Sequence record: OR594182
Strand: one strand, 5' to 3'
DNA: 39,734 nt
From: Escherichia phage vB_EcoM_SHAK7854
Shown one piece after another: positions 1,826 through 35,935 of this stretch. Each line of letters opens with the position of its first letter. The first letter of the stretch is position 1. The notes beneath the pieces are model-generated. The model worked only from the letters and a program-made list of their open reading frames with translations, was not told where the DNA came from and ran no database searches. The position numbers and the translations under genes are program-made.

Positions 1826-1848
1826 ACTTAACTATCACTATAGGGAAG
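1826..1848 (+). promoter_or_regulatory. phage RNAP promoter (phiOR-like, downstream of gene 19)
   Basis: ACTTAACTATCACTATAGGGAAG; core CACTATAGGGA identical to T7 class III -8..+3. Confidence 0.7.
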
Positions 1849-2028
1849 ACCCCCGGTTACTTATAGTATTACTGTAGTGAATATACATATGCAGACTTTA
1901 TGCAAGGCCTTAGGAGGCAGACTCCGAGTTCTTACCTAAGTCTTGCACCGATGGAAGGAGGGTGATATTAATCATAATCCCTCCAATACAGATAGTCACC
2001 GACCATAGATACAGGAGGTATGTAGCAT

Positions 2029-2187
2029 ATGGCAAAGACCAAAGCTGTACTTAAAGCTCTGGCGACCAATCGAGCTACATACAGGTTTCTTGCTGCTGTT
2101 CTACTTGCTGCTGGCGCTACTGCTGGAAGTCAGTGGGTCGGGTGGGTCGAGACTCTCGTATGTTCTCTGGTCTCTCAGTGTAATTAA
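2029..2187 (+). CDS. hypothetical small hydrophobic protein (52 aa) in the gene 19.5 position
   Basis: ATG with AGGAGG 10 nt upstream; below the ORF-track size cutoff; no homology recognised. Confidence 0.3.
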   Translation: MAKTKAVLKALATNRATYRFLAAVLLAAGATAGSQWVGWVETLVCSLVSQCN

Positions 2188-2344
2188 CGCCGTAATGGTA
2201 ACAATCAACGAAAGCAAGACCTAAGGTCAGTTCATAGCTGACGCTACTCTACTGACCTTAGCTACTGTAGTCAAGGACTTTAGGTAACACCTTAATAGAA
2301 GCTCACTTAGGGTCATCCTACTTATTGGTCTATCCTAGTGTCGC

Positions 2345-2390
2345 CTGACCTACGGTCCTTGACCTACAGTGGCTGTGGCCTACAGTAGTG
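2345..2390. repeat. short ACCTAC(A/G)GT direct repeats on the left flank of the terminal repeat
   Basis: three copies of ACCTACAGT-like motif; analogous to the CCTAAAG arrays next to the T7 terminal repeat. Confidence 0.55.
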
Positions 2391-2423
2391 ACGATGAGTT
2401 TTGGACCAAAAGTTTGAGACCAC

Positions 2424-2606
2424 ATCTCACACTTCAAGAACCTCAAGTCTCCCCATAGGCCTCTTTCAGTCCAGACCAAAGGCCCTACCCCAGTCTATCA
2501 TAAGGTTGGACCGATGGTCAAGACTTCAGGTCAACGATAGGCTGAGGCTATGGCTTAGGGAAGGACGATAGGTTGGGACTATTGGTCTGCCTCTGAGTCC
2601 CTATCT
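2424..2606. repeat. direct terminal repeat, copy 1 (183 bp; right genome end)
   Basis: exact tandem duplicate of 2607..2789; begins ATCTCACAC and ends GTCCCTATCT, resembling the T7 terminal repeat termini. Confidence 0.8.
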
Positions 2607-2789
2607 ATCTCACACTTCAAGAACCTCAAGTCTCCCCATAGGCCTCTTTCAGTCCAGACCAAAGGCCCTACCCCAGTCTATCATAAGGTTGGACCGATGG
2701 TCAAGACTTCAGGTCAACGATAGGCTGAGGCTATGGCTTAGGGAAGGACGATAGGTTGGGACTATTGGTCTGCCTCTGAGTCCCTATCT
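2607..2789. repeat. direct terminal repeat, copy 2 (183 bp; left genome end)
   Basis: identical to 2424..2606 by direct reading. Confidence 0.8.
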
Positions 2790-2814
2790 GTATAGTGATA
2801 TAGTATAACATTAC

Positions 2815-2940
2815 GTCCTACACCTACAGTCTAACTAACCTACAGTCATTGACTCCTGCTGTACCTACAGTCACCGACCATCGGTAAAGCCATTACCTAC
2901 AGTCAAAGACCTACAGTCAAAGACCTACAGTCTAACGACA
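2815..2940. repeat. array of about six ACCTACAGTC short direct repeats on the right flank of the terminal repeat
   Basis: CCTACAGTC recurs at about 2823, 2838, 2863, 2895, 2910, 2925. Confidence 0.6.
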
Positions 2941-3043
2941 CAAAGCTATAGACTTAAGGTCTAATACATGTTAGTCAAAGACTATATCCTCTTAGTCACT
3001 ATGGGCCGACGATAGCTTAATCAATATTATTTAAGATTACCTA

Positions 3044-3072
3044 TTGACTACAGGTCCAGACTATGGCTTAAT
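3044..3072 (+). promoter_or_regulatory. candidate host sigma70 early promoter (T7 A1-like position)
   Basis: TTGACT, 17-nt spacer, CTTAAT; surrounding sequence resembles the T7 A1 region. Confidence 0.4.
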
Positions 3073-3184
3073 AGCTTCCGTCAACACGACACGGCAACAA
3101 CCGGATAGTGAAGACGCCGGGTCATCCCGGTTAAGTAGACAGCCTGATAAGTCATACGAACAACAGGCAGATGACAGAAAGTAG

Positions 3185-3214
3185 TTGACAAGATGTACCG
3201 ACTTAAAGTAGTAT
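3185..3214 (+). promoter_or_regulatory. candidate host sigma70 early promoter (T7 A2/A3-like)
   Basis: TTGACA, 18-nt spacer, TAGTAT, followed by GTACCACAT as at T7 A3. Confidence 0.5.
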
Positions 3215-3341
3215 GTACCACATCAACACGAAACAACGGTGACGACCAACACTGAAACGGTCTACCTGAAGTCCTCTGACTGAAGGGAATGCTCTTTAAC
3301 AATCTGGATAAACTCTTAATGTGCGCCGACAGTGATTAACT

Positions 3342-3390
3342 ACAGGGTCTTTGAGTCTACATCTGAAGGCCCTGACTGATAGCCACTAAC
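3342..3390 (+). repeat. early intergenic hairpin element type A, copy 1 (candidate RNase III site)
   Basis: GTGATTAACTACAGG...CCTGACTGATAG element with internal inverted repeat; precedes ORF 3398. Confidence 0.5.
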
Positions 3391-3397
3391 TTAACGG

Positions 3398-3652
3398 ATG
3401 GACACTATGAAACACTTAAGCACAATCACTAATCGCAATGAAGTATTCGTGAACACTAAAGGTTATGCGTGGATTCAGCTTAAAGAGATGAGAGGAGCGC
3501 GTCACCGTGTGGTAGTTCGCAAGGTATCAAGCAAGCCGTTCAGCAACTACAGCGTAGATACTATGCGTATAGACAACGAGACTTACCTGATAGACTCGCA
3601 GATAACCGTGCGTCCTACAGCGGGCATCTCAGCTCCTTATTTCGCTAACTGA
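3398..3652 (+). CDS. hypothetical early protein (84 aa)
   Basis: first ORF of the early region, downstream of the candidate host promoters; no homology recognised. Confidence 0.55.
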   Translation: MDTMKHLSTITNRNEVFVNTKGYAWIQLKEMRGARHRVVVRKVSSKPFSNYSVDTMRIDNETYLIDSQITVRPTAGISAPYFAN

Positions 3653-3654
3653 GG

Positions 3655-3705
3655 GTGATTAACTACAGGTCGTTAGACTGATAGCGGCCTGACTGATAGT
3701 CACTA
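3655..3705 (+). repeat. early intergenic hairpin element type A, copy 2
   Basis: GTGATTAACTACAGGTCGTTAGACTGATAGCGGCCTGACTGATAGTCACTA; CAGGTC/GGCCTG stem. Confidence 0.55.
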
Positions 3706-3725
3706 GCAACCTAAGAGGATTCATT

Positions 3726-4004
3726 ATGAGACTGAACAAAGCTACAGCAGAAGCCTTTCGCAAGGAGCTTGAATCAAGATTATTGTGTGGAGTGGCGGAA
3801 GGAGCCGCTCGATATAAAGAGAATGGTCTAACGTTCAAGCGCTTTATGTGGGATTGCTATCACGGAGTGGGCCATAAAAAGTCGCAGGAAATAATCACCA
3901 GCAACAATGCGGAAGTGCAAGTGATAGGAGGATACATGGCTAACGTGAAGGATTCACACATAGAGACAATGCTTAAGAATGCACTTAAAGATGTAGCCTA
4001 CTAG
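3726..4004 (+). CDS. hypothetical early protein (92 aa)
   Basis: ORF with AGAGGA RBS 7 nt upstream. Confidence 0.6.
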   Translation: MRLNKATAEAFRKELESRLLCGVAEGAARYKENGLTFKRFMWDCYHGVGHKKSQEIITSNNAEVQVIGGYMANVKDSHIETMLKNALKDVAY

Positions 4005-4054
4005 TGATTAACTACAGGTCGTTAGACTGATAGCGGCCTGACTGATAGTCACTA
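4004..4054 (+). repeat. early intergenic hairpin element type A, copy 3
   Basis: identical to copy 2 over about 50 bp. Confidence 0.55.
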
Positions 4055-4084
4055 ACACATAATTAACTTTGAGAGGATATAACT

Positions 4085-4588
4085 ATGGAACGTAATGCTA
4101 ACGCATACTATGAGCTGCTGGCTGCAACCGTTGAGGCATTTATCGAGCGTATTCAGTACGACCACCTGACTCAAGATGATGACTACAGCGATGCGCTGCA
4201 TGAGGTCGTAGACGGTCAGGTTCCACACTATTACCACGAGATTTTTACGGTGATGGCTGCTGATGGTATAGACCACGAGTTCGAAGACTCTGGGCTGATG
4301 CCTGAAACCAAGGACGTAACGCGTATCCTACAAGCTCGCATCTATGAGGCGCTTTATAACGATGTGTCTAATAGCTTGGATGTAGTCTGGTTTGAGGATG
4401 AAGAGGCAGAAGAAGAGGATGAATATTGGGTAGTTGACGCTAAAACAGGCGCAATAATTGTGCAAGCTGTAGCTCTTGAGGTCGCTACTGCATGTGCCAA
4501 TGTTAACTATGCGGCAGGTCGCCACCTGAAGGTGGAAGACATCAATGATAACGTAGTGTTCGACCCTGCGGCTGAGGACTGCGAGTGA
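4085..4588 (+). CDS. ocr: Ocr-like DNA-mimic anti-restriction protein (T7 gp0.3 homolog) with about 50-aa C-terminal extension
   Basis: [43 protein letters not shown] matches T7 Ocr; acidic tail present; 167 aa versus 117 aa in T7. Confidence 0.85.
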
Positions 4589-4733
4589 TGGTAACTTATG
4601 GCCTCTGCCAGCACCACGTCACTAACGCCCGGCTTATGGTCAAGACCGGGCAGTTAGACCACGATTGGGCTATGCGTCTCTTGAAAGTGGTCTACAGGAG
4701 ACGCAAGCGTATACACGACAGTTTACACGCTAA

Positions 4734-4782
4734 GTGACAGACTACAGGTCATCAATGCTGGTGGCCTGACTGATAGTCATTA
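4734..4782 (+). repeat. early intergenic hairpin element type A, copy 4
   Basis: GTGACAGACTACAGGTCATCAATGCTGGTGGCCTGACTGATAGTCATTAAC. Confidence 0.5.
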
Positions 4783-4800
4783 ACAACTGAGAGGGAAGAT

Positions 4801-5028
4801 ATGAACACAATCACTGGTGCCATAACCAAAGGTTTTCGAGCAATTTTCGGTGAAACGCAAGAAGTATGCACCAATCATAAATTCGTACTTTCTTGCGTAG
4901 CAGGTGACGAGTTTGACGGGTTCGATAAACTGGTGGTTTGCGACCATTGCGGACAAGAGGCTATCCAACACTCAAACGGTAAATTTGAATTAATAGACGA
5001 TAGCCTTACAGAAGGAGACGGCGAGTAA
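4801..5028 (+). CDS. hypothetical early protein (75 aa) with four cysteines and acidic C-terminus
   Basis: GAGAGGGAAG RBS; C-x8-C...C-x2-C spacing suggests a small zinc-binding fold. Confidence 0.55.
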   Translation: MNTITGAITKGFRAIFGETQEVCTNHKFVLSCVAGDEFDGFDKLVVCDHCGQEAIQHSNGKFELIDDSLTEGDGE

Positions 5029-5092
5029 CCTAAATAAGCAGGAGAGAACCAAATCATAGCTTGACCATAACACTGACGTGATGGTACTGAGT

Positions 5093-5135
5093 GATAGACG
5101 AGAGGTCATCGACTGATAGGTGGCCTCAAAGATTA
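5093..5135 (+). repeat. early intergenic hairpin element type A, divergent copy 5
   Basis: GAGGTCATCGACTGATAGGTGGCCTC retains the AGGTC/GGCCT stem. Confidence 0.4.
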
Positions 5136-5160
5136 CCACTTACATTGATAGGAGTTAACT

Positions 5161-5265
5161 ATGAGCACTGCAATCATCTGGACTATCTCAGGCTTCGTAG
5201 CGTGGGGAATGTTTACTCTAGTCTGCAAACTACCGGTCCTTACTCAACTGTTATGGGGCTTATGA
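5161..5265 (+). CDS. hypothetical small hydrophobic peptide (34 aa)
   Basis: GGAG RBS; MSTAIIWTISGFVAWGMFTLVCKLPVLTQLLWGL; stop overlaps next ATG (ATGA). Confidence 0.3.
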   Translation: MSTAIIWTISGFVAWGMFTLVCKLPVLTQLLWGL

Positions 5266-5465
5266 CTATGAGTATCGCACTATTGATAGCCATAGGCTAT
5301 GGACTTATCGCCTACGTGCTGGTGAGAGACATCAACAAGGCACGTAAAGTCTATAAATTCAACTATGTACGTATGGTCCGCTGGACTGTACGTCAACCTA
5401 ACGGACGATTCCTGCGCAATTTAGCGAACGTCTGGGATATAGCAACTCTTGGGAGCAAACTGTAA
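5262..5465 (+). CDS. hypothetical early membrane protein (68 aa)
   Basis: internal Met of ORF-track 5091..5465 chosen as start; N-terminal hydrophobic helix then basic tail. Confidence 0.4.
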   Translation: MTMSIALLIAIGYGLIAYVLVRDINKARKVYKFNYVRMVRWTVRQPNGRFLRNLANVWDIATLGSKL

Positions 5466-5791
5466 TGAACAAGTCATACGGGATTAATCTGGTACACTCT
5501 ATGGACGCAGAAATGAACATGTTAAGCCTACTGGCTACCGGGTATCGTCACGGAACGTCAAGTCACACCGCACGTCAACAGCAGGAGCGGGACCGTGTAC
5601 TACAGGCGCGACTCCGGGCAGAGGGCCATAAGTCCGAACTGATGTGTCTGGCGTATGGCGGACGACCGATCACTGACGATGGTAAACTTCTGGTATCAGG
5701 CTGGAAGGCGATAGACCAACGGTCAACCATCAAGCACACGACTCATGGTGACTTCAGTCATCTTCACGCTAACCCACTGATATGCAAGTGA
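5465..5791 (+). CDS. hypothetical early protein (108 aa)
   Basis: TAATG coupling to upstream ORF; occupies the T7 0.7 position but is far too short to be the kinase. Confidence 0.5.
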   Translation: MNKSYGINLVHSMDAEMNMLSLLATGYRHGTSSHTARQQQERDRVLQARLRAEGHKSELMCLAYGGRPITDDGKLLVSGWKAIDQRSTIKHTTHGDFSHLHANPLICK

Positions 5792-5796
5792 TTCTG

Positions 5797-5819
5797 ACTT
5801 AACTATCACTATAGGACTC
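5797..5819 (+). promoter_or_regulatory. phage RNAP promoter immediately upstream of the RNAP gene
   Basis: CTTAACTATCACTATAGGACTCA; +1 GGA. Confidence 0.6.
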
Positions 5820-5888
5820 AAGGTCTAAGACTCCAAGTGAAAGACCAAAGAGACTTTAAGTGAAAGACTAATAACAAGGACTTTAAGT

Positions 5889-8570
5889 ATGAGCGTCATC
5901 TCTATTGACAAACACGACTTCTCTGATGTGTCGAACGCCATTGAGCCGTTTAACCTGCTGGCTGACCACTACGGGCAAGACCTTGCAGTCAAACAGCTTC
6001 AGCTTGAGCATGAGGCCTACACTGAAGGTGAGCGACGTTTCATCAAGAACCTTGAGCGTCAGACCGAGCGAGGGGAACTGGCAGACAATCAGGTCGCCAA
6101 GCCTTTGATGCAGACTCTGGTTCCTAAGATTGCGCAAGCCGTCAAGGAGTGGCACGAAGGTCCAGACGGGAAGCTGTCAACCTCACGTCCGAGCGTAGCG
6201 TTCACCATGTTAAGCACTGAAGAGAAGGCCGTCAAGGACCGCTCTCTTCGCATCTCCTGCGAGTCTGCTGCGGTTATCATACTGAAGGTCATCCTCTCCA
6301 AGCTGGTCAAGCCTGAAGGTATACCGATTACACCGATGGCCTCCGCGATAGGTCGCACACTTGAGGATGAAATCCGATTCGGTCGCATTCGTGACAAGGA
6401 GAAGGAGCACTTCAAGAAGGCGATAGCTGATAACCTGAACAAGAGAGCCGGGGCATCATACAAGAAAGCCTACATGCAAGCGGTCGAGACATCCATGCTG
6501 GAGCAAGGCCAACTAGAAGATGCGTGGGGAACTTGGAGTCCGACCGAGGCTGTCCACGTTGGAATCAAGATGCTGGAGATTGTCATACAGTCAACACAAC
6601 TGGTCGAGCTTAAGCGTTACGGTGCTGGCAATGCAGCGGCTGACGTTGAGATGGTCCACCTGTCAGACTTCTGGGTCAAGAAGATGGCACAACGAGGATT
6701 CAGCCTTGCGGGTATCGCCCCAGTCTACCAGCCTTGCGTCGTTCCACCTAAGCCGTGGACTGGTGTCGTAGGTGGTGGGTACTGGGCCAAAGGTCGCAGA
6801 CCGTTACCATTGATTCGCTTAGGGTCTAAGTCTGCGGTAGCACGTTATGAAGACGTATACATGCCTGAAGTCTATGACGCTGTGAATATCATCCAGAATA
6901 CACCTTGGAAAGTGAACAAGAAGGTATTGGACGTGGTGAACAAGGTCGAGAAGCTGAACAACACGCCTATTGATGACATCCCTCAGATGGAACCGCTGAA
7001 GCCTGAGGACTATGCGGGTGAGACTGAAGAAGAACTCAAGGCATGGAAGAAGGCTGCTGCTGGTATCTATCGCCGCGAGAAGGCCAGACAGTCACGAAGA
7101 TTGTCACTGAGCTTTATCGTCAACCAAGCGAACAAGTTCTCTCAGTTCAAGGCCATCTGGTTCCCGTATAACATGGACTGGCGCGGTCGCGTCTACGCTG
7201 TGCCGATGTTCAACCCTCAGGGTAACGACATGCAAAAGGGTCTTCTGACTCTGGCAGTCGGTAAGCCTATTGGTGCTGATGGTTTCAAATGGCTGAAGGT
7301 CCACGGTGCAAACTGCGCGGGTGTCGATAAAGTCACCTTCGAGGAGCGTATCAAGTGGGTGGAAGATAACCACGACAACATCATGGCTGCTGCCAAGGCA
7401 CCGATGGATAGCATTGAGTGGTGGGGCAAGTTAGACTCTCCGTTCTGCTTCCTAGCGTTCTGCTTCGAGTATGCTGGCGTAATGCACCACGGCTTGTCTT
7501 ACTCCTGCTCGCTGCCGATAGCGTTCGATGGGTCCTGCTCTGGGATTCAGCACTTCAGCGCTATGCTTCGCGACCACATCGGTGGACATGCAGTAAACCT
7601 GACGCCATCCGGTAAGGTCCAAGACATCTACCGCATCGTGTCTGACCGCATTGAGGAGGAGCTTAAAGTCCTACTGGTTAACGGTACGGACAACGAGATG
7701 GTAACTCACGAGGACAAGAAAACTGGTGAGATTACCGAGCGTCTCAAGCTGGGGACACGAGAGCTTGCCCGTCAGTGGCTGACCTACGGTATGTCACGAA
7801 AGGTCACTAAGCGTTCGGTCATGACTCTGGCCTACGGGTCGAAAGAGTACGGCTTCGCAGACCAAGTTTACGAGGACATCGTGATGCCAGCGATTGACTC
7901 AGGGTCTGGCGCTATGTTCACTGAACCAAGCCAAGCATCTCGCTTCATGGCTAAGATGATTTGGGAAGCTGTGAGTGTGACCGTAGTTGCTGCGGTTGAC
8001 GCGATGAAATGGCTTCAGGGTGCTGCCAAGCTGCTTGCTGCTGAAGTGAAGGACAAGAAGACTGGAGAAATCCTGAAGCCTTGTCTTCCGGTACACTGGG
8101 TCACACCTGATGGTTTCCCTGTCTGGCAGGAATACCGCAAGAAGGACACCACTCGTCTGAACCTGATGTTCTTAGGGTCATTCAACCTTCAGCCTACCGT
8201 CAACAAAGGCACGAAGAAAGAGCTGGACAAGCACAAGCAGGAGTCAGGCATTAGCCCGAACTTCGTCCACTCACAAGATGGTAGCCACCTCCGCAAGACT
8301 GTAGTCCACACTCACCGAAAGTATGGCGTGATGTCATTCGCAGTGATTCACGATAGCTTCGGGACCATCCCGGCTGACGCTGAGTATCTGTTCCGTGGAG
8401 TCCGTGAGACGATGGTAGAGACTTACCGCGATAACGATGTGCTGCTTGACTTCTACGAGCAGTTTGAATACCAGCTTCATGAAAGTCAGCGCGACAAGTT
8501 GCCTGAGCTTCCGAAGAAAGGTAAACTAAATATCGAAGACATCTTGTCTTCAGACTTTGCATTCGCTTAA
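5889..8570 (+). CDS. single-subunit DNA-directed RNA polymerase (T7 gp1 family)
   Basis: 893 aa, collinear with T7 RNAP (PFNLLADHYG, WFPYNMDWRGRVYAV, SPFCFLAFCFEYAG, AFDGSCSGIQHFSAMLRD, HDSFGTIPADA, C-terminal FAFA). Confidence 0.97.
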   Translation: MSVISIDKHDFSDVSNAIEPFNLLADHYGQDLAVKQLQLEHEAYTEGERRFIKNLERQTERGELADNQVAKPLMQTLVPKIAQAVKEWHEGPDGKLSTSRPSVAFTMLSTEEKAVKDRSLRISCESAAVIILKVILSKLVKPEGIPITPMASAIGRTLEDEIRFGRIRDKEKEHFKKAIADNLNKRAGASYKKAYMQAVETSMLEQGQLEDAWGTWSPTEAVHVGIKMLEIVIQSTQLVELKRYGAGNAAADVEMVHLSDFWVKKMAQRGFSLAGIAPVYQPCVVPPKPWTGVVGGGYWAKGRRPLPLIRLGSKSAVARYEDVYMPEVYDAVNIIQNTPWKVNKKVLDVVNKVEKLNNTPIDDIPQMEPLKPEDYAGETEEELKAWKKAAAGIYRREKARQSRRLSLSFIVNQANKFSQFKAIWFPYNMDWRGRVYAVPMFNPQGNDMQKGLLTLAVGKPIGADGFKWLKVHGANCAGVDKVTFEERIKWVEDNHDNIMAAAKAPMDSIEWWGKLDSPFCFLAFCFEYAGVMHHGLSYSCSLPIAFDGSCSGIQHFSAMLRDHIGGHAVNLTPSGKVQDIYRIVSDRIEEELKVLLVNGTDNEMVTHEDKKTGEITERLKLGTRELARQWLTYGMSRKVTKRSVMTLAYGSKEYGFADQVYEDIVMPAIDSGSGAMFTEPSQASRFMAKMIWEAVSVTVVAAVDAMKWLQGAAKLLAAEVKDKKTGEILKPCLPVHWVTPDGFPVWQEYRKKDTTRLNLMFLGSFNLQPTVNKGTKKELDKHKQESGISPNFVHSQDGSHLRKTVVHTHRKYGVMSFAVIHDSFGTIPADAEYLFRGVRETMVETYRDNDVLLDFYEQFEYQLHESQRDKLPELPKKGKLNIEDILSSDFAFA

Positions 8571-8585
8571 CAGGAGGAGAAGTAT

Positions 8586-8816
8586 ATGTCAATGAAACTT
8601 GTAGCACACAACAGGACATACAACGATGGGTCGGGACGTTGCCATGTAGAGCTGACTTATAGGGATTTAGTCATTCTCCGAGACAGATTACAAGAGGGTG
8701 TGACTGGGTGGATTCAACCTAACGAGTACAACCTTATAGCTTCGATTGATGAAGTGCTTAACGCGTGGATGGAAGACGAGCGCACTCAGTATCCATCATT
8801 CCCTATGATTAAATAA
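8586..8816 (+). CDS. hypothetical protein (76 aa), no T7 counterpart between gene 1 and 1.1
   Basis: CAGGAGGAG RBS. Confidence 0.55.
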   Translation: MSMKLVAHNRTYNDGSGRCHVELTYRDLVILRDRLQEGVTGWIQPNEYNLIASIDEVLNAWMEDERTQYPSFPMIK

Positions 8817-8826
8817 GGAGAGAGTT

Positions 8827-9042: not shown

Positions 9043-9116
9043 CAGACATACAGTTACTGGCCCTGTGGCTGGGAGCACTCGCAGTATTCACTTTAATCCA
9101 ACGCAGAAGAGGTTAA
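9039..9116 (+). CDS. hypothetical hydrophobic peptide (25 aa)
   Basis: ATGA overlap with upstream stop; MTDIQLLALWLGALAVFTLIQRRRG. Confidence 0.25.
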   Translation: MTDIQLLALWLGALAVFTLIQRRRG

Positions 9117-9117
9117 C

Positions 9118-9140
9118 CCTAAACTATCACTATAGGATTA
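9118..9140 (+). promoter_or_regulatory. phage RNAP promoter (phi1.1-like)
   Basis: CCTAAACTATCACTATAGGATTA. Confidence 0.7.
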
Positions 9141-10712: not shown

Positions 10713-10722
10713 CTAAACGTCA

Positions 10723-10760
10723 ACCCAGTGGTCTTCGGACTGCTGGGTTTCTTTGCTTTG
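10723..10760 (+). terminator. rho-independent early terminator (TE-like) after ligase
   Basis: CCCAGTGG-TCTTCGGA-CTGCTGGG stem-loop followed by TTTCTTTGCTTTG. Confidence 0.65.
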
Positions 10761-10795: not shown

Positions 10796-10818
10796 CCTAA
10801 GCTATCACTATAGGACAA
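10796..10818 (+). promoter_or_regulatory. phage RNAP promoter
   Basis: CCTAAGCTATCACTATAGGACAA. Confidence 0.65.
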
Positions 10819-11814: not shown

Positions 11815-11969
11815 CTGACGTAGAGAAGAAGTACATCGTGGAGCTTGAGGGTCGCATTCAGTCCTTCGAGGTTCCGGTGTACGCAAAGTCTCTTGAAGAG
11901 GCTACCCTGAAGTCCCAAGAGTATGAGGACGCTGGGTTTGTGGTCGGACGGATTCGTCCTGAGACCTAA
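11811..11969 (+). CDS. Gp2-like inhibitor of host RNA polymerase (52 aa)
   Basis: [14 protein letters not shown]...[10 protein letters not shown] resembles T7 Gp2 SFEVPIYAETLDEA...AGFEVTRVRP. Confidence 0.75.
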
Positions 11970-11987
11970 ACTATCACTGTAGGACAG
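11965..11987 (+). promoter_or_regulatory. phage RNAP promoter, variant (TGTAGG)
   Basis: CCTAAACTATCACTGTAGGACAG; stop codon of the Gp2-like gene lies within it. Confidence 0.55.
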
Positions 11988-14144: not shown

Positions 14145-14360
14145 ATGATTAAACTTATCGAATTTCTTGGTCGTCTGGTGGTGCGTGGTTATCGTCGTGC
14201 TGCGGTACTGGAACGAAAGGTAGAAAAGAAGACTGCGGACGGTGCGGCTGATGCTGCTGCTCTGGCTGACAAGCTGACCATCGCGTCACTGGAAGCTGGC
14301 ATGAAGGCGCGTCAGGCTGACACCAAAGCCGACCAGTTGGCTCAGTTCTTCAAAGCCTAA
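14145..14360 (+). CDS. hypothetical protein (71 aa; gene 3.8 position)
   Basis: AGGGAGAA RBS; Ala/Lys-rich, probably helical. Confidence 0.5.
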   Translation: MIKLIEFLGRLVVRGYRRAAVLERKVEKKTADGAADAAALADKLTIASLEAGMKARQADTKADQLAQFFKA

Positions 14361-14378
14361 ACTATCACCTTAGGGATG
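14356..14378 (+). promoter_or_regulatory. phage RNAP promoter, variant (CCTTAGGG)
   Basis: CCTAAACTATCACCTTAGGGATG; overlaps upstream stop; followed by GGGAC...GTCCC hairpin. Confidence 0.5.
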
Positions 14379-16368: not shown

Positions 16369-18540
16369 ATGTTTGACCTTAAGAGTATCTGGGGTTCTGA
16401 CATCGAGACCAACGGTCTCCTTGATACAGTCTCCCAGTTTCACTGTGGGGTCCTGATTAACGCCGAGTCGAATGAGACCCTTAAGTATGGGGTAGCTCCG
16501 ATGGTCGGTATCGTCGGTGGCTTCAAAGAGTATGTGCAGAAGGTGGAAGAGATTGCCGCATCACCTGATGGTATGCTGGTATTCCACAACGGTATCAACT
16601 ATGACGTCCCGGCTATTGACAAGCTGAAGCGTCTGTACTTCGGGAAACGCTTTAACTTCCCGAAACACAAGATGATTGATACCTTGGTGCTGGGTCGCTT
16701 GATGTATCCCAACATTAAGTTCTCAGACATGGGCGCGGTGAAAGCTGGTCGTCTGCCTCCTAAGATGATGGGACGCCAGTCTCTTGAGGCTTGGGGTTAT
16801 CGTCTCGGTGAGATGAAGGGTGAGTACAAACACGATTACGTTGCCAAGTGCAAGGCAGAAGGTATCGAATATAAGGCTGGGGACGAATGGCTGTTCCCGT
16901 CTCAGGAGATGCTGGACTATAACGTTCAGGACGTTGTGGTCACACTGGCGCTGTTCAAGAAGTTCCTGACTGACAAGTATTACTTCCAGTCTGAACAGTT
17001 CGCTTTCGACCAGATTTATGCGTTGCGTCTGGAACATGATGCTGCGTGGACCTGTGCGAAGATGGAACGTAACGGCTATCCGATGAACACCGAGATGGTC
17101 GAAGGCTTATATCGTGAACTAACCGTCAAACGTGCAGAGCTGCTGGACAAGCTGCGTTCGACTTTCGGTAGCTGGTACGCACCAAAGGGAGGCAAGAAGT
17201 TCTTCAAGCACCCACGGACTGGCAAGGACCTTCCGAAGTATCCGCGAGTCGTGTATCCTAAGGTCGGTGGCATCTTTAAGAAGCCGAAGAACAAAGCTCA
17301 ACGCTTAGGTCTTGAACCTTGTGAGCGTGATACGCGAGACACGATGGAAGGAGCGCCTTTCACGCCAATCACTTACGTTGAGTTTAATCCGGGAAGCGGA
17401 GACCACTTAGCGAAAGTCCTGATGGAGCGTGGCTGGGAGCCTGTAGACTTCACTGACACCGGGAAACCTGTAGTCGATGACGAGACGTTAGAACACGTTA
17501 AGTTACCAGACGCAGAGGCTCAGGCTTGCGTAGAGCTGGTCCGTGAGTACCTGGTAGTCCAGAAGCGCATCGGTCAGGCTGCTGAAGGTAAGAACGCATG
17601 GTTGAAACTTGTAGGTCCAGACGGACGTATGCACGGCTCAATAAACCCATGCGGGGCAGTAACCGGACGTGCGACCCATAGTTCACCAAACATGGCTCAG
17701 GTCCCGGCTAACGGTGCTCCATATGGTGAGACTTGCCGTGGTGCTTTCGGTGCAGCGTGGAACAAGAAGGACGGTAAGCCAGACCCTTGGATTCAAGTTG
17801 GTGTGGATGCCTCAGGTCTTGAGCTTCGTTGTCTTGGGAACAGAGCGGCTCCGTTTGATGGTGGTGCATATGCGAAGACTGTGGTAGAAGGTGACATCCA
17901 CTGGGCCAACGCAGTAAACGCTGGGTTAGCACCTAACGTCCAACGCGATAAGTCTAACCACGACCATGAGGCTTTCCGTAACAACGCTAAGACGTTCATC
18001 TACGCGTTCCTGTATGGTGCAGGGGCCGCTAAGATTGGACTGATAGTAGGCGGTGGTAAGAAGGAAGGTTCAGCGCTCATGAAGAAATTCATTGAGGGTA
18101 CACCAGCTATCAAGGACCTCAGGGAAGCTGTAAGTAATACGTTAATCTCAGACTCTAAGTGGGTGGACGGTGAGAATATCGTCAAGTGGAAACGTCGCTG
18201 GCTGAAAGGTCTGGATGGTCGTCGTATTCACATCCGGTCTCCACACTCAGCACTGAACGCATTACTTCAAGGTGATGGTGCGGTAGTATGTAAGCACTGG
18301 ATTGTTGAGACTGAACGTATGCTCGAAGAGGCCGGGTATGTCCACGGCTGGGAAGGAGACTTTGCGTACATGGCATGGGTCCACGACGAATTGCAGATTG
18401 CAGCTCGGAACATGGAGATTGCCGAAGATATTCGCAGGATTGCTCAACTTGCTATGCGTAAGGTGGGTGAGTTCTATAACTTTAAATGTGTCCTTGATAC
18501 TGAAGGTAAGATTGGACCAACTTGGAAGGAGTGTCACTAA
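16369..18540 (+). CDS. DNA polymerase (T7 gp5 family)
   Basis: SDIETNGLLDTVSQFHCGV, FHNG, YDVPA, VQDVVVT, NPCGAVTGRATHSSPN, AKTFIYAFLYGAG, AYMAWVHDE; start moved to ATG 16369 with GGAGGA RBS. Confidence 0.95.
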   Translation: MFDLKSIWGSDIETNGLLDTVSQFHCGVLINAESNETLKYGVAPMVGIVGGFKEYVQKVEEIAASPDGMLVFHNGINYDVPAIDKLKRLYFGKRFNFPKHKMIDTLVLGRLMYPNIKFSDMGAVKAGRLPPKMMGRQSLEAWGYRLGEMKGEYKHDYVAKCKAEGIEYKAGDEWLFPSQEMLDYNVQDVVVTLALFKKFLTDKYYFQSEQFAFDQIYALRLEHDAAWTCAKMERNGYPMNTEMVEGLYRELTVKRAELLDKLRSTFGSWYAPKGGKKFFKHPRTGKDLPKYPRVVYPKVGGIFKKPKNKAQRLGLEPCERDTRDTMEGAPFTPITYVEFNPGSGDHLAKVLMERGWEPVDFTDTGKPVVDDETLEHVKLPDAEAQACVELVREYLVVQKRIGQAAEGKNAWLKLVGPDGRMHGSINPCGAVTGRATHSSPNMAQVPANGAPYGETCRGAFGAAWNKKDGKPDPWIQVGVDASGLELRCLGNRAAPFDGGAYAKTVVEGDIHWANAVNAGLAPNVQRDKSNHDHEAFRNNAKTFIYAFLYGAGAAKIGLIVGGGKKEGSALMKKFIEGTPAIKDLREAVSNTLISDSKWVDGENIVKWKRRWLKGLDGRRIHIRSPHSALNALLQGDGAVVCKHWIVETERMLEEAGYVHGWEGDFAYMAWVHDELQIAARNMEIAEDIRRIAQLAMRKVGEFYNFKCVLDTEGKIGPTWKECH

Positions 18541-18824
18541 TGGCTATTACTAAACGTATTCGTGTGAGTTTTGATCTGAAGATGGTTGCTAACTCAAAGG
18601 AAGAAGATACCATGTGTCGCCAACTGGCTGATATGACTAAAGCCTACGCTGAGGGTGAGAAGCTGGATGGTCTTCAGTTGGCTCTGGTCAAAACCGCAAT
18701 CGAGTCAGGCCCTGAGTCTGCCCTTGAAATTGCCCTCAAGAAGACCATCAAGGAGAAGCTGGTAGACGACTTTGGTTATGGCCAGTTCGGAGTATCTAAC
18801 CTGCGATTCGAGGTCAAGCAATGA
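18540..18824 (+). CDS. hypothetical protein, possibly gp5.5-like
   Basis: TAATG overlap with gp5 stop; N-terminus MAITKRIRVSFDL recalled as similar to T7 gp5.5. Confidence 0.5.
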   Translation: MAITKRIRVSFDLKMVANSKEEDTMCRQLADMTKAYAEGEKLDGLQLALVKTAIESGPESALEIALKKTIKEKLVDDFGYGQFGVSNLRFEVKQ

Positions 18825-20019: not shown

Positions 20020-20042
20020 ACTAAACTATCACTATAGGGACT
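20020..20042 (+). promoter_or_regulatory. phage RNAP promoter (phi6.5-like)
   Basis: ACTAAACTATCACTATAGGGACT. Confidence 0.75.
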
Positions 20043-20103
20043 TTAGGACCTAAGATATGACTATAAGATAGACTTTAGTCTTAACTTAAAGAGGAGATTC
20101 AAG

Positions 20104-20619: not shown

Positions 20620-21042
20620 ATGCTACCATATCTCAACTCACGCGAAGGTCGCCACATGTGCGCTTGTCGCCTCTGGGAAGACGGGCAGTCTAACTTCAAG
20701 TCATTTGAGAACTTCAAGGCTCATACTTACCGTATGGCTGACGAGTTCGACGGTGAGGAGTACACAATCTACGATGTCTCAGGTCAACCAGTAGCGTATC
20801 TCTACATGCTGGCTACCGCATCATGGCACCGACCGACTCCCGGTCTTGACCTTTCAATCGTTGCTATTCGTCGTGACTCGCAGTCCTCCCGCAAGGTTCT
20901 TGAGACTGTCAGGCACATCATAAACGAAGAATGCAAGCGTTGGGGTCTTGGCTGGTATTCTCGTGTCAAGCATGTTTCCGGGTCGGTAGACATCGTAACA
21001 ACCAAGTGCGTTAGCACGAACAAGGAGATTAACCGTGGGTAA
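20620..21042 (+). CDS. hypothetical protein (140 aa; gene 7 position)
   Basis: position and size only. Confidence 0.5.
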   Translation: MLPYLNSREGRHMCACRLWEDGQSNFKSFENFKAHTYRMADEFDGEEYTIYDVSGQPVAYLYMLATASWHRPTPGLDLSIVAIRRDSQSSRKVLETVRHIINEECKRWGLGWYSRVKHVSGSVDIVTTKCVSTNKEINRG

Positions 21043-21294: not shown

Positions 21295-22863
21295 ATGGCT
21301 GAACGTGAAGGGTTCGCTGCTGAAGGAGCCAAAGCGGTCTATGACCGACTGAAGAACGGTAGACAGCCATATGAGACACGCGCTCAGAACTGTGCTGCTG
21401 TCACTATCCCGTCACTGTTTCCTAAGGAGTCCGACAACTCGTCTACTGAGTACACCACTCCGTGGCAAGCTGTGGGTGCTCGCTGCTTGAACAACTTGGC
21501 TGCGAAGCTGATGTTGGCATTATTCCCTCAGTCACCGTGGATGCGACTTACAGTCTCCGAATATGAGGCAAAGACCTTGAGTCAGGACTCAGAGGCGGCT
21601 GCTCGTGTTGATGAAGGGCTGGCTATGGTCGAGCGTGTGTTGATGGCTTACATGGAGACTAACAGTTTCCGTGTCCCATTATTCGAGGCGCTGAAGCAGC
21701 TTATCGTCTCAGGTAACTGCCTGCTCTACATCCCTCCTCCAGAACAAGGAACCTACAGTCCTATGCGAATGTACCGCTTAGTGTCCTACGTTGTTCAACG
21801 TGATGCTTTCGGTAACATCTTACAGATTGTGACTCTCGACAAGGTAGCGTTTAGTGCTCTACCGGAAGACGTGAAGTCTCAACTCAACGCAGACGACTAT
21901 GAGCCTGACACCGAGCTTGAAGTCTATACGCACATCTACCGTCAGGACGACGAGTATCTGCGCTACGAGGAAGTGGAAGGCATTGAGGTGACAGGTACCG
22001 ATGGTTCCTACCCGCTGACTGCATGTCCATACATCCCGGTACGAATGGTTCGACTGGATGGTGAAGACTACGGTCGTTCTTACTGCGAGGAGTATCTGGG
22101 CGACCTCAACTCGCTGGAGACGATTACAGAAGCTATCACAAAAATGGCTAAGGTAGCCTCCAAGGTGGTGGGCCTCGTTAACCCGAACGGTATCACGCAG
22201 CCTAGACGTCTGAACAAGGCGGCTACAGGTGAGTTCGTGGCTGGTCGAGTTGAGGACATCAACTTCCTGCAACTGACGAAAGGTCAGGACTTTACGATTG
22301 CTAAGTCGGTGGCTGACGCTATCGAGCAACGTTTAGGCTGGGCCTTCCTTCTTAATAGTGCTGTTCAGCGTAATGCCGAGCGTGTCACTGCTGAAGAGAT
22401 TCGTTATGTTGCTGGCGAACTGGAGGCGACCTTAGGTGGCGTGTACTCAGTACAGTCACAAGAGCTTCAGTTGCCTATCGTCCGTGTGCTGATGAACCAA
22501 CTTCAGTCTGCTGGCATGATTCCAGACCTTCCGAAAGAAGCGGTAGAGCCTACGGTCTCCACTGGTCTGGAAGCGTTAGGTCGTGGTCAGGACTTAGAGA
22601 AGCTGACTCAGGCAGTCAACATGATGACCGGGCTACAGCCTCTACAACAGGACCCAGACATTAACTTGCCTACACTGAAGCTGCGACTGCTGAATGCCTT
22701 AGGCATTGACACCGCTGGTCTGCTACTGACTCAGGACGAGAAGTTGCAACGCATGGCTGAACAATCCGCTCAAGGAGCTGTGGTCAATGGTGCGTCTGCT
22801 GCTGGTGCTAACATGGGTGCTGCTGTGGGTCAGGGAGCTGGTGAGGACATGGCTCAAGCCTAA
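21295..22863 (+). CDS. portal (head-tail connector) protein (T7 gp8 family)
   Basis: YETRAQNCA, TIPSLFPK, TPWQAVGAR, YVVQRDAFGN, LRYEEVEG, GRSYCEEYLGDL, RVTAEEIRYVA. Confidence 0.95.
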   Translation: MAEREGFAAEGAKAVYDRLKNGRQPYETRAQNCAAVTIPSLFPKESDNSSTEYTTPWQAVGARCLNNLAAKLMLALFPQSPWMRLTVSEYEAKTLSQDSEAAARVDEGLAMVERVLMAYMETNSFRVPLFEALKQLIVSGNCLLYIPPPEQGTYSPMRMYRLVSYVVQRDAFGNILQIVTLDKVAFSALPEDVKSQLNADDYEPDTELEVYTHIYRQDDEYLRYEEVEGIEVTGTDGSYPLTACPYIPVRMVRLDGEDYGRSYCEEYLGDLNSLETITEAITKMAKVASKVVGLVNPNGITQPRRLNKAATGEFVAGRVEDINFLQLTKGQDFTIAKSVADAIEQRLGWAFLLNSAVQRNAERVTAEEIRYVAGELEATLGGVYSVQSQELQLPIVRVLMNQLQSAGMIPDLPKEAVEPTVSTGLEALGRGQDLEKLTQAVNMMTGLQPLQQDPDINLPTLKLRLLNALGIDTAGLLLTQDEKLQRMAEQSAQGAVVNGASAAGANMGAAVGQGAGEDMAQA

Positions 22864-22881
22864 ACTATCACTATAGGAACA
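22859..22881 (+). promoter_or_regulatory. phage RNAP promoter (phi9-like)
   Basis: CCTAAACTATCACTATAGGAACA; overlaps portal stop codon. Confidence 0.7.
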
Positions 22882-23838: not shown

Positions 23839-23861
23839 ACTAAACTATCACTATAGGGAGA
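23839..23861 (+). promoter_or_regulatory. phage RNAP promoter (phi10-like, strongest consensus match)
   Basis: ACTAAACTATCACTATAGGGAGA; +1..+6 GGGAGA as in T7 class III. Confidence 0.8.
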
Positions 23862-25276: not shown

Positions 25277-25281
25277 TTGAA

Positions 25282-25320
25282 ACCCCTTGGGTGCCTTCGG
25301 GTGCTTGAGGGGTTTTTTTG
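25282..25320 (+). terminator. Tphi-like terminator after the capsid gene
   Basis: AACCCCTTGGGTGCCTTCGGGTGCTTGAGGGGTTTTTTTG resembles T7 Tphi. Confidence 0.8.
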
Positions 25321-28611: not shown

Positions 28612-28656
28612 GGGCCTATAGATTTACCTTAACTATCACTATAGGGACTATAGGCC
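28612..28656 (+). other. 10-bp perfect inverted repeat (GGGCCTATAG / CTATAGGCCC) enclosing the promoter before gene 13
   Basis: arms at 28612..28621 and 28647..28656. Confidence 0.5.
28627..28649 (+). promoter_or_regulatory. phage RNAP promoter (phi13-like)
   Basis: CCTTAACTATCACTATAGGGACT. Confidence 0.7.
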
Positions 28657-28688: not shown

Positions 28689-29159
28689 ATGTATATTCGT
28701 AAAGCTACTGAACCCGATGTCCACCACTTTCTATGGAATCTTTCGGCAGATGATGTTAATGAGTGCAAAGCAAACTACGGGTCAACCGTGGGTCTCTCTG
28801 AAAGACTGCTTAAGCACCTATCTCCGTCATCTGTGGTTTTAACGAACGGTGTAGGCGAAGTGTTTGCCTATGGTGGAAACCAAGGGGATAACGTATGGTT
28901 CTTGACTTCCGGTCTTGTCTATAAGCTGAGACCTAAAGAGAAGCGAGAGTTCATGAAGCGTATCTCTGAGTACAGGGACTTAATGTTAGACCAATACGGG
29001 ACCATCTGGAACTACGTGTGGTCAGGCAATAAGTCTCACATTAAATTCTTGAAGTTGCTTGGGGCTAAATTCCATGATGATTGGACTGTCAGCCCGGTAA
29101 CTGGTGAGCGTTTTCAATTATTCACTATCTCTAAGGAGGACGTATGTGTGAACCCGTAA
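28689..29159 (+). CDS. internal virion / assembly protein (gp13-like)
   Basis: position between gp12 and gp14; 156 aa. Confidence 0.65.
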   Translation: MYIRKATEPDVHHFLWNLSADDVNECKANYGSTVGLSERLLKHLSPSSVVLTNGVGEVFAYGGNQGDNVWFLTSGLVYKLRPKEKREFMKRISEYRDLMLDQYGTIWNYVWSGNKSHIKFLKLLGAKFHDDWTVSPVTGERFQLFTISKEDVCVNP

Positions 29160-29731: not shown

Positions 29732-29742
29732 GAGGAGGACTA

Positions 29743-32025: not shown

Positions 32026-32029
32026 CATA

Positions 32030-35000
32030 ATGGCGACTCGTGGTATTCGCAATAACAATCCGGGTAACATCCGGGTAAGTAAGGACCAATGGGAAGGAAT
32101 GACTGGAGATGATGGCGCATTCGTCACCTTCGATAGTCCAGAGTCTGGCGTCCGAGCTTTAGGTAAAAACCTGCTGTCCTACGGTCGCCAAGGTTATGAT
32201 TCCATCGAGAAGATTATCAACAGATGGGCACCTCCTAACGAGAACGACACTAAGGCTTATATTGACTCAGTGGTGGCTGCAACTGGTATTCCAGCTACAC
32301 AGAGTCTCGACCTATCGGACCCTGACACCCTGTCTTCTCTGGCACAAGCTATCAGCTTCCATGAGACAGGCTCACGGTACGACCCTGAAGTCTATCAGAA
32401 GGGAGTCGCACGGGCACTCAACGGCATTAGCCCAAAGACTCCACCAGTAAGCGCTAACGTATTTGACGCACTCACGGAAGGACTCAAGGCTAAACCTAAA
32501 GTAGCTCTGGGTGAGAACCTTCCGACCGCTGCTGGTCTGAACATTGAGGGTCAAGCACCTGAATCTCCCAACGAATCGTTCGGTGAGATGTTCTATAAGG
32601 CTACTGGAGAGACCATGCAGGAGCAAGAGGACCGCTCTACGTGGTTCGGTTTCGGTGCGGCTACAGAAGCTGAAGTGAAGAACTCTATGGTCGGCGTGGC
32701 TATACGAGCTGGTCAGACTGAGGACTCACTGGATGTCATTGGCGATGTGTTCAACCCAACCAGATGGAACAACCATAAGTGGTCTCGTGAGGAGCTAGAC
32801 CAGATTCGTAACGCTGGGGTTTTGCCTCAGTATTACGGAGTCATTACTGGTGGATCTCCTCAGAACCTGACCGAGCTTATTAACTTGGCGCTTGAGAACC
32901 AGAAGTTGGACCAAGAGAAGGCCAAGGCTGGGACTGGTGCTCAACTGGCGGCTGGTGTGATTGGTGCTGGCGTGGACCCTCTGACCTACGTTCCTATTGC
33001 TGGGCAGGTAGGTAAAGGTGGTAAGCTAGTCAACAAGATGTTCACTGTGGCTGCTCAGTCTGGTGCTCTGGCTGGGGCATCCGAGATTGCTCGAACCTCA
33101 GTTGCTGGTGGGGACGCTCATGTTGCTGAAGCTATCCTTGGTGGTGCTCTCTTCGGTGGTGGCATGACTGCTATCGCTGATGGACTAGGTAGAGCCTTAG
33201 GTCGCAACACTAATGAGTTTGCTGGTCCAGCTACACGTTTGGAAGCTCGTGAGACCGCTCGTAACGTTGATGGTCAGGACCTGTCCCGTCTCCCTATTCA
33301 GGAAGGTGAGCAGACCTTTAGTCATCAAGGCGTTAAGTTCGCTGACGTTCCGAATGAGCCGGGAAGTGTACGATTAGAAGACGGTTCAATCCTGATTGGT
33401 GAGAACCCTCTGAACCCTAAGACACGTCAAGTCTTTGACGAAGTGATTGAGCCGGAACGTGCCGCTGCTGGTGTTAACCTTGGTGGACTTACCGAGATTG
33501 GCCTGAAGCTGCTTCGGTCTGAGAACCCTGAGATTCGTGGAGTAGCTGCTGACTTAGTGCGTTCACCTACTGGTATGCAGTCTGGGGCCTCAGGTAAAAT
33601 CGGGACAACAGCGTCAGACGTGTTCGAGAGACTTCGTGCTGTGGACCATCGGTTCTACAACGACATAGACGATGCGGTTACTGAGGCACTCAAGGATCCG
33701 TACTTCCAGACAGCATTCTGGCGAGACTCTGGCGCATTCCGTCAGGACATCTACCAGCGTGTGTCTATGGCTATTGAAGACGGAAGTGGGAACCTGAAGG
33801 CTGAACTGACTCCGGGAGAACTGAAAGTCTATGACCTACTGAAGAACCAGTTCGACGCCAAGCGTGAGATGATGGAGAACCCAGCGATGTTTGGTCGTCC
33901 AGACGCTCAGTCTATCTTTCCGGGTAGCCGCTTCAAGGGAACCTACGTCCCTCATGTGTATAGCAAACAGATGAAGGAGCTGTACATCAAGGAGCTTGGG
34001 AGTCCAGAGGCGTTGCAGGAGGCCATCAAGAAGTCATGGTTGACCAGCTATGCGTCTCGACCTGAAGTCAAGAAACGCGTGGACGAGGCACTTTTAGAGG
34101 CTGACCCTACGTTGACTCCAGAAGGACTTGCGGCTGCGGTCGATAAGTACGCCAACGATAAGGCTTATGGTATCTCTCACACCGAGCAGTTCGAGCGTTC
34201 ATCCGTAATGGAGGAGAACATCAACGGGCTGGTGGGTCTGGAGAACAACAGCTTCCTTGAGGCTCGTAACCTGTTCGATAGCGATATGTCAATCGTTCTT
34301 CCTAACGGTCAGACCTTCAGTGTCAACAACCTGCGTGAGTGGGACATGGACAAGATTGTCCCGGCCTACAACCGTCGAGTTAATGGTGATATTGCTATCA
34401 TGGCTGGTACAGGCAAGACCACGAAGGAAATGAAGGACTTAGTTGAGACCATGATGAACAAGGCTGGCGATGACGGAAAGTTGAAAGGTGAAGTATCTAC
34501 CTTACGTGACACCCTGAAGATTCTCACTGGTCGTGCTCGACGTGATGGTGCTGATGATGCGGCCTTCGCTACCGTGATGCGCACGATGACAGACCTATCG
34601 TTCTTCGCTAAGAATGCCTACATGGGTGTTCAGAACTTAACGGAGATTGGTGGTATGCTGGCTCGTGGTAACGTTCGTGCCCTGCTACACGGAGTACCGA
34701 TGTTCCGTGACCTAGCCTTCCGTAACAAGAAGGTCGGGGCCTCGGAGATTAAGGACCTGCATAATGTTATCTTCGGTAAAGAATTAGACGACTCAATCCG
34801 TCCGTCTAAACAGGATGTTATCGACCGTCTGCGATCTTACAGTGACCTTAGTCGTGGTACAGCTACAGCTCTGGGGACTGCTAAGTATTACACTGGTGAA
34901 CTTGTAGTACGCTCTCCGTTCACTAAAGTCCTCAACGGTACGACCAACTACCTGTTAGATGCTGGACGTCAAGGCTTCCTGTCTGACATAGTGGAGCATA

Positions 35001-35917
35001 GCCTGACTGGTAGTAAGCGTAAGTTCGATGACCGCTGGCTGAAGACCGCTGGTATATCTGACGAGCAGTGGAGTGGAATTAAGTCCCTAATCCGTGAGTC
35101 AGTGACTCGTGGGCCAGACGGGAAGTACACCATCAAGGATAAGAAGGCATTCAGTCAGGACCCAAGGGCTATGGACCTGTGGCGTATGGGTGACACCATC
35201 GCTGACGAGACGTTACTCCGGCCTCATAAGCTGTCAAACATGGACGCCAAGGCTTATGGTCCTCTCGCTAAGACTGTCCTTCAGTTTAAGAACTTCGTCA
35301 TCAAGTCTATCAATGGGAGAACCATGCGAACCTTCTATAACGCCACGAAGAACAACAGAGCGATTGACGCTGCACTGTCGACCGTGATGTCTATGGGTCT
35401 GGCTGGTATCTACTACATGGCTCAGGCGCATGTCAAGGCTTATGCTATGCAGGATGGTCGAGACCGTGACTACCTTAAGCAAGCTCTGGACCCAACGATG
35501 ATTGGCTATGCGGCCCTGTCCCGTAGTTCACATCTTGGTGGCCCACTTGGGGTAGCTAACATTCTGGGAGGCATCGCTGGATATGAGGACACTAAGATGC
35601 TCCGTTCGTCTATCCTACCTCGTTCTCCTACAGAGAAGCCTGAGCGTGCCATCGCGTATGGTGCAGCTACAAGTGACCCTGTGATGAATGTTGTTGGTAA
35701 CTTCTTGGAGCAGGTTCCAGCTTTCGGATATGCTGCTAACGTTGGCGCTTCGGCTTACAACTTGGCTGGCTACCTCAAGGCTGATACTCGTGTCAACGAG
35801 CGTGACTACATGACCGGGATGTATAATACGTTCCGTGAACTGGTTCCGAACGACCCCATTACCCAGAAGCTGCTGCTTGGAACGTTTGAGGAGCAAGGCA
35901 TCCACATCAAGGACTAA
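32030..35917 (+). CDS. internal virion protein C/D (T7 gp16 family) with divergent N-terminal domain
   Basis: 1295 aa; from about residue 200 collinear with T7 gp16 (RWNSHIWT-like, GGSPQNL, VRSPTGMQSGASGK, TYVPHVY, RPEVK, AYGISH, ENNSFLEARNLFDSD, RRVNGDIAIM, FFAKNAYMG, NGTTNYLLDA, RAMDLWR, NNRAIDAALS, DPTMIGYAALSRSS, LVPNDP). Confidence 0.93.
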   Translation: MATRGIRNNNPGNIRVSKDQWEGMTGDDGAFVTFDSPESGVRALGKNLLSYGRQGYDSIEKIINRWAPPNENDTKAYIDSVVAATGIPATQSLDLSDPDTLSSLAQAISFHETGSRYDPEVYQKGVARALNGISPKTPPVSANVFDALTEGLKAKPKVALGENLPTAAGLNIEGQAPESPNESFGEMFYKATGETMQEQEDRSTWFGFGAATEAEVKNSMVGVAIRAGQTEDSLDVIGDVFNPTRWNNHKWSREELDQIRNAGVLPQYYGVITGGSPQNLTELINLALENQKLDQEKAKAGTGAQLAAGVIGAGVDPLTYVPIAGQVGKGGKLVNKMFTVAAQSGALAGASEIARTSVAGGDAHVAEAILGGALFGGGMTAIADGLGRALGRNTNEFAGPATRLEARETARNVDGQDLSRLPIQEGEQTFSHQGVKFADVPNEPGSVRLEDGSILIGENPLNPKTRQVFDEVIEPERAAAGVNLGGLTEIGLKLLRSENPEIRGVAADLVRSPTGMQSGASGKIGTTASDVFERLRAVDHRFYNDIDDAVTEALKDPYFQTAFWRDSGAFRQDIYQRVSMAIEDGSGNLKAELTPGELKVYDLLKNQFDAKREMMENPAMFGRPDAQSIFPGSRFKGTYVPHVYSKQMKELYIKELGSPEALQEAIKKSWLTSYASRPEVKKRVDEALLEADPTLTPEGLAAAVDKYANDKAYGISHTEQFERSSVMEENINGLVGLENNSFLEARNLFDSDMSIVLPNGQTFSVNNLREWDMDKIVPAYNRRVNGDIAIMAGTGKTTKEMKDLVETMMNKAGDDGKLKGEVSTLRDTLKILTGRARRDGADDAAFATVMRTMTDLSFFAKNAYMGVQNLTEIGGMLARGNVRALLHGVPMFRDLAFRNKKVGASEIKDLHNVIFGKELDDSIRPSKQDVIDRLRSYSDLSRGTATALGTAKYYTGELVVRSPFTKVLNGTTNYLLDAGRQGFLSDIVEHSLTGSKRKFDDRWLKTAGISDEQWSGIKSLIRESVTRGPDGKYTIKDKKAFSQDPRAMDLWRMGDTIADETLLRPHKLSNMDAKAYGPLAKTVLQFKNFVIKSINGRTMRTFYNATKNNRAIDAALSTVMSMGLAGIYYMAQAHVKAYAMQDGRDRDYLKQALDPTMIGYAALSRSSHLGGPLGVANILGGIAGYEDTKMLRSSILPRSPTEKPERAIAYGAATSDPVMNVVGNFLEQVPAFGYAANVGASAYNLAGYLKADTRVNERDYMTGMYNTFRELVPNDPITQKLLLGTFEEQGIHIKD

Positions 35918-35935
35918 ACTATCACTATAGGAAAC
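35913..35935 (+). promoter_or_regulatory. phage RNAP promoter (phi17-like)
   Basis: ACTAAACTATCACTATAGGAAAC; overlaps gp16 stop codon. Confidence 0.7.

Follow-up and report, generated by a model that had tools for sequence, protein, structure and literature searches.

Promoters of the T7-like phages are recognized by single-subunit RNA polymerases (RNAPs), and for phage K1F this recognition has been dissected experimentally. Temme et al. 2012 replaced the hairpin Q744-I761 of T7 RNAP by the K1F loop and positions −12 to −7 of the T7 promoter by the K1F consensus, and the resulting T7(K1F) enzyme was active on this promoter, with the pair showing high orthogonality towards the T7, T3 and N4-type pairs (PMC3458549). 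In Table 2 of PMC11880802, the K1F graft with residues 754S/756N/761V is assigned to the element ACTAT at −12 to −8, while CGACT is given for T7 and ACCCT for T3. Also, the purified RNAP of Escherichia phage Ro45lw was found by Takatsuki et al. 2025 to transcribe from ACTTAACTATCACTATAGGGA, with +1 mapped to the first G by deep sequencing; this 21-mer is the estimated 23-mer without its two 3′-terminal bases (CT), the removal of which did not reduce RNA synthesis (PMC12272871). A 2026 genome paper on a member of the genus Kayfunavirus described the repeat CTWAACTATCACTATAGG as the promoters of that phage. Finally, the GenBank record of phage EcoDS1 (EU734172) contains 11 annotated phage promoters, located before gene 1, at phi1.1, phi1.6 and phi2.5, before gene 4, at phi6.5 and phi9, before gene 10, and at phi13, phi17 and phiOR. 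In this study, we analyzed eleven copies of a promoter-like motif in Escherichia phage vB_EcoM_SHAK7854 (sequence record OR594182), of which one strand of 39,734 nucleotides, here called the window, was used at its full length.

The eleven motifs are almost certainly K1F-like (Kayfunavirus) promoters read by the phage's own single-subunit RNAP, which is encoded at 5889-8570. In its favour, the analysis shows the sites with their statistical significance, a one-to-one match to annotated promoters, and an RNAP loop identical to that of K1F. The window was searched on both strands with the pattern TAAACTATCACTATAGGGA, allowing up to 3 mismatches, and the chance level was taken from dinucleotide-preserving shuffles. 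Eleven matches were obtained, all of them on the plus strand and none on the minus strand, while 0.01 were expected from the shuffles (Table 1). A first-pass annotation of the same DNA had placed eleven phage promoters at exactly these sites: each of its coordinates lies two bases to the left of a match, which corresponds to −17 of a 23-mer, and its last position, 35935, is +6 of the last site. The core CACTATAGG is present in nine copies on the plus strand and in none on the minus strand, and the remaining two sites are single or double variants, namely CACTGTAGG at 11965 and CACCTTAGG at 14356, both as that annotation had listed them. At −12 to −8, ACTAT is found in 10 of the 11 sites and GCTAT in phi1.6, so that CTAT at −11 to −8 is common to all eleven.

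For the detection of further degenerate copies, a check that the first-pass annotation had proposed, a 23-column weight matrix (28.5 bits in total) was built from the eleven 23-mers and used to scan both strands of the window as well as 50 shuffles. The eleven sites scored 31-37 bits and the best shuffle 14.6 bits. No credible twelfth copy was found on either strand of the window, since the next-best score, 14.9 bits at 20049, was no better than that of the best shuffle; the sequence CCTAAGATATGACTATAAGATAG at 20049-20071 was therefore rejected as a promoter. It is located 29 bp downstream of phi6.5 in the leader of gene 6.5, is identical in EcoDS1, and could be either the remnant of a decayed promoter or an element of a leader structure.

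The genome carrying these sites is that of a complete K1F-like podovirus of about 39.7 kb, belonging to the genus Kayfunavirus in the subfamily Studiervirinae and thus a relative of T7. The best nucleotide matches by megablast, with the RNAP region and the first 25 kb as queries, were Kayfunavirus records with 93-97% identity over 90-100% of the query, and a tblastn search with the annotated EcoDS1 proteins against the window showed that the order from gene 0.3 to gene 19.5 is wholly syntenic with EcoDS1. The promoters of the two phages correspond one to one, in the same order and before the same genes, and positions −15 to +3 are identical at all 11 sites, both variants included. Differences are confined to flanking bases at a few sites, for example −17/−16 of phi1.1 (CC in the window, TC in EcoDS1) and of phi6.5. 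For K1F, Table 2 of PMC11880802 and the K1F genome sequence served as sources of the promoter element; the same 11 sites and the same two variants as in the window are present, and the phiOR copy differs in having GGAA at +1 to +4 where the window has GGGA. The 21-mer used with the Ro45lw enzyme is identical to window positions 1826-1846, with +1 at the first G, although Ro45lw is a different isolate of the same genus. Beyond these phages, the core 15-mer AACTATCACTATAGG is found again, frequently with several copies on one contig, in many viral contigs of about 40 kb among the IMG/VR matches listed.

All sites lie between genes, or reach into no more than the stop codon of the gene before them, and each is located upstream of a co-oriented gene block syntenic with EcoDS1. 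The observation that several promoters begin with the TAA of the preceding gene applies to 4 of the 11 sites: at −15 to −13, this triplet is the stop codon of gene 2 (site 11967), of a gene 3.7-like open reading frame (ORF) at 14145-14360 (site 14358), of gene 8 (site 22861) and of gene 16 (site 35915). In EcoDS1, the TAA of phi1.1 is the stop codon of gene 1.05, a gene without counterpart in the window. This arrangement bears on the question whether the motifs could be a dispersed repeat that has no promoter function and serves another purpose, for instance as RNase III sites or as signals for packaging, replication or recombination. One copy, at 1826, is indeed close to the right genome end (about 760 bp before it, upstream of gene 19.5) and, by analogy with phiOR of T7, could presumably also act in replication or packaging. 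However, all copies are oriented with transcription and lie just upstream of gene blocks, and their positions −8 to +6 equal the T7 promoter core. Furthermore, the same sequence drives a Kayfunavirus RNAP from the predicted +1 (PMC12272871), and T7 RNAP with the K1F loop transcribes from the K1F element (PMC3458549, PMC11880802). A repeat without promoter function is accordingly very improbable.

For comparison with T7, two promoters annotated in NC_001604 were used to check the form of the consensus. The 23-bp architecture is the same, and in the best window copy (23839) the stretch from −8 to +6, TCACTATAGGGAGA, is identical to T7, which includes the −8 to +3 core that the first-pass annotation had equated with it. 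The differences are located at −17 to −14 and at −12 to −9, and the alignment confirmed ACTA instead of CGAC at −12 to −9 and TA instead of AT at −15/−14, as noted in that annotation. In the synthetic promoter PK1F, only −12 to −7 of the T7 promoter were exchanged, whereas the natural sites depart from T7 also at −17 to −14. From T3, the copy at 23839 differs at −16, −14, −10, −9 and −2.

The cognate polymerase shows the corresponding features. The product of gene 1 shares 99% identity with the RNAPs of K1F (99.4%) and EcoDS1 and 64% with those of T7 and T3, and proteins with at least 99% identity to it are encoded in 61 phage records. Ro45lw was not among the 60 best RNAP matches listed, and the relation of its enzyme to the one in the window is known at the level of the genus, to which Ro45lw is assigned in the NCBI taxonomy. 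The specificity loop TTRLNLMFLGSFNLQPTV is the same in the window, K1F and EcoDS1; its comparison with the T7 loop QTRLNLMFLGQFRLQPTI gives the changes Q744T, Q754S, R756N and I761V. Of its residues, numbered as in T7, R746, N748, N756 and Q758 read the DNA, and S754 and V761 are likewise those of K1F. Thus, both the published K1F element ACTAT at −12 to −8 and the loop residues 754S/756N/761V coincide with the bases and residues of the window.

These data also speak to the idea that the promoters are functionally of the T7 type, so that the upstream differences would reflect neutral drift and T7 RNAP would use the sites fully. The shared positions −8 to +6 and the conservation of R746, N748 and Q758 fit this idea, as does the residual cross-activity reported for grafted polymerases (PMC11880802). 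Against it stand CTAT at −11 to −8 in all eleven sites, preceded by A at −12 in ten, and the absence of the T7 CGAC from every one; no site in the window was found within 3 mismatches of the T7-consensus 23-mer, and the polymerase carries N and not R at position 756. Since the pair of K1F loop and ACTAT has in addition been measured as orthogonal to the T7/CGACT pair (PMC3458549, PMC11880802), we consider full use by T7 RNAP most unlikely. The assignment of the motifs to a class of phage promoters with specificity positions unlike those of T7 and T3, as proposed in the first-pass annotation, is supported by the EcoDS1 annotation, by the K1F-type RNAP loop, by published orthogonality and by the published start of a Kayfunavirus RNAP at the predicted +1 G of ACTTAACTATCACTATAGGGA.

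Two points have to be set against the assignment to K1F-like promoters. The set of grafted polymerases keeps some non-cognate activity (PMC11880802), so that orthogonality to T7 is strong and not absolute, and the experimental support comes from the T7 backbone with the K1F loop or from the Ro45lw enzyme and not from this isolate. For close relatives, both the orthogonality to T7 and T3 and the start at the +1 G have been shown in the literature, and both would by analogy apply here; likewise, promoter activity is predicted for this particular isolate.

On this basis, transcription of the genome may be envisaged as follows. Host RNAP would first transcribe the early region, gene 1 included, and the phage polymerase would then bind each 23-bp site, its specificity loop reading the major groove at about −12 to −8 (ACTAT). 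The key change would be Asn at position 756, where T7 has the Arg that reads −9. The conserved TATA at −4 to −1 would be melted and synthesis would start at the G of GGG or GGA. Rightward transcription would then cover the genes of DNA metabolism followed by the structural genes, and would be bounded by the putative terminators TE and Tphi, both of them strong hairpins with a T run (Table 1).

The phage promoter at 5797, 75 nt upstream of the RNAP gene, deserves attention in this scheme. It is annotated in EcoDS1 and present in K1F, whereas in the T7 record an E. coli promoter is the only one given upstream of gene 1. Judged by its position, it could confer positive feedback on polymerase synthesis.

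As in T7, the sites are distributed over the genome and fall into a class II-like and a class III-like group. The six right-hand, late promoters (phi6.5, phi9, phi10, phi13, phi17 and phiOR) keep the consensus from −15 to +2 except for A or T at −14, and the five left-hand, early and middle promoters deviate most, with G at −12 in phi1.6, G at −3 in phi2.5 and C at −4 with T at −3 before gene 4. A GGA start is found in 4 of the 5 left-hand promoters, the gene 4 promoter keeping GGG, and also in the late promoters phi9 and phi17. In T7, class II promoters are weaker and class III promoters stronger. The split between left-hand and right-hand promoters probably parallels these two classes and, by this analogy, would tune strength and timing; a ranking of promoter strengths along these lines is a prediction. 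The two variants at 11965 and 14356 are plausibly weaker, as the first-pass annotation had suggested. Their conservation across K1F, EcoDS1 and this phage suggests that selection maintains them and that they are not merely decaying. They may be purposely tuned, be it towards weak or late-clearing promoters of class II or towards greater sensitivity to inhibition by the gp3.5 lysozyme, and together with the gene 1 promoter they would then give the genus a regulatory logic somewhat unlike that of T7; this is a tentative thought that we regard as rather doubtful.

Table 1. Promoters, putative terminators and further features of the window. Match start, first position (−15) of the match to the search pattern; +1, predicted transcription start.
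Feature	Coordinates	Strand	Sequence	Match start	+1	Remarks
phiOR-type promoter	1826..1848	+	ACTTAACTATCACTATAGGGAAG	1828	1843	Equivalent to EcoDS1 phiOR 38500-38522
Promoter before gene 1	5797..5819	+	ACTTAACTATCACTATAGGACTC	5799	5814	Identical to EcoDS1 phi promoter 2244-2266
phi1.1-type promoter	9118..9140	+	CCTAAACTATCACTATAGGATTA	9120	9135	−15 to +6 identical to EcoDS1 6034-6056
phi1.6 promoter	10796..10818	+	CCTAAGCTATCACTATAGGACAA	10798	10813	G at −12; identical to EcoDS1 phi1.6
phi2.5 promoter, variant	11965..11987	+	CCTAAACTATCACTGTAGGACAG	11967	11982	G at −3; same variant in EcoDS1 and K1F
Promoter before gene 4, variant	14356..14378	+	CCTAAACTATCACCTTAGGGATG	14358	14373	C at −4, T at −3; same variant in EcoDS1 and K1F
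phi6.5 promoter	20020..20042	+	ACTAAACTATCACTATAGGGACT	20022	20037	Matches EcoDS1 phi6.5
phi9 promoter	22859..22881	+	CCTAAACTATCACTATAGGAACA	22861	22876	Matches EcoDS1 phi9
phi10 promoter	23839..23861	+	ACTAAACTATCACTATAGGGAGA	23841	23856	Before major capsid gene; identical to EcoDS1 20819-20841
phi13 promoter	28627..28649	+	CCTTAACTATCACTATAGGGACT	28629	28644	Identical to EcoDS1 phi13
phi17 promoter	35913..35935	+	ACTAAACTATCACTATAGGAAAC	35915	35930	Before tailspike gene; identical to EcoDS1 phi17
Early terminator, TE-like	10722..10749	+				Hairpin, then T run; after ligase gene, before phi1.6; same position as EcoDS1 TE
Tphi-like terminator	25279..25316	+				17-pair hairpin, then T run; after gene 10; same position as EcoDS1 'phiTE'
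Gene 1, single-subunit RNA polymerase	5889..8570	+				893 amino acids; Pfam RNA_pol (1.5e-106) and RPOL_N
Exact 183-bp tandem duplication	2424-2606 and 2607-2789					93% identical to annotated EcoDS1 terminal repeat

Further features of the genome complete this picture. The sequence of the window is rotated and starts inside gene 19. Because the tandem duplication matches the terminal repeat of EcoDS1, it represents both direct terminal repeats joined head to tail, and the record thus corresponds to a rotated linear genome with its physical ends at about 2606|2607. In the early region, the stretch 3391-4036 has no counterpart in the left end of EcoDS1; the small ORFs at 3398-3652 and 3726-4004, upstream of a homologue of Ocr (gene 0.3) at 4085-4588, gave no Pfam match. 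Conversely, no match in the window was obtained by tblastn for the EcoDS1 genes 1.05 and 13.5 and three small ORFs. Among the accessory genes, gp5.5 (18540-18824) is 32% and gp13 (28689-29159) 66% identical to the EcoDS1 proteins. The tailspike encoded by gene 17 (35982-38513; 843 amino acids) contains a T7-tail N-terminal domain, Tail_spike_N and a C-terminal Peptidase_S74 chaperone domain. Its likeness to EcoDS1 gp17 (71%) is limited to the first 317 amino acids, which indicates that the receptor-binding module has been swapped.

A genuine class of regulatory motifs could thus be recovered from raw sequence with exact coordinates. The practical value of the result is one of annotation, as the 11 promoters, the 2 terminators, the RNAP and the terminal repeat together make up a complete transcription map of the isolate. 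The K1F promoter/polymerase pair itself is annotated in GenBank, has been classified in comparative studies of T7-like promoters and serves synthetic biology as an orthogonal expression part. Publications already cover the promoter class with its cognate polymerase, the responsible residues and the orthogonality to T7 and T3, and a close relative has the sites annotated in its GenBank record; the window shows no departure from the known picture of the K1F promoters.

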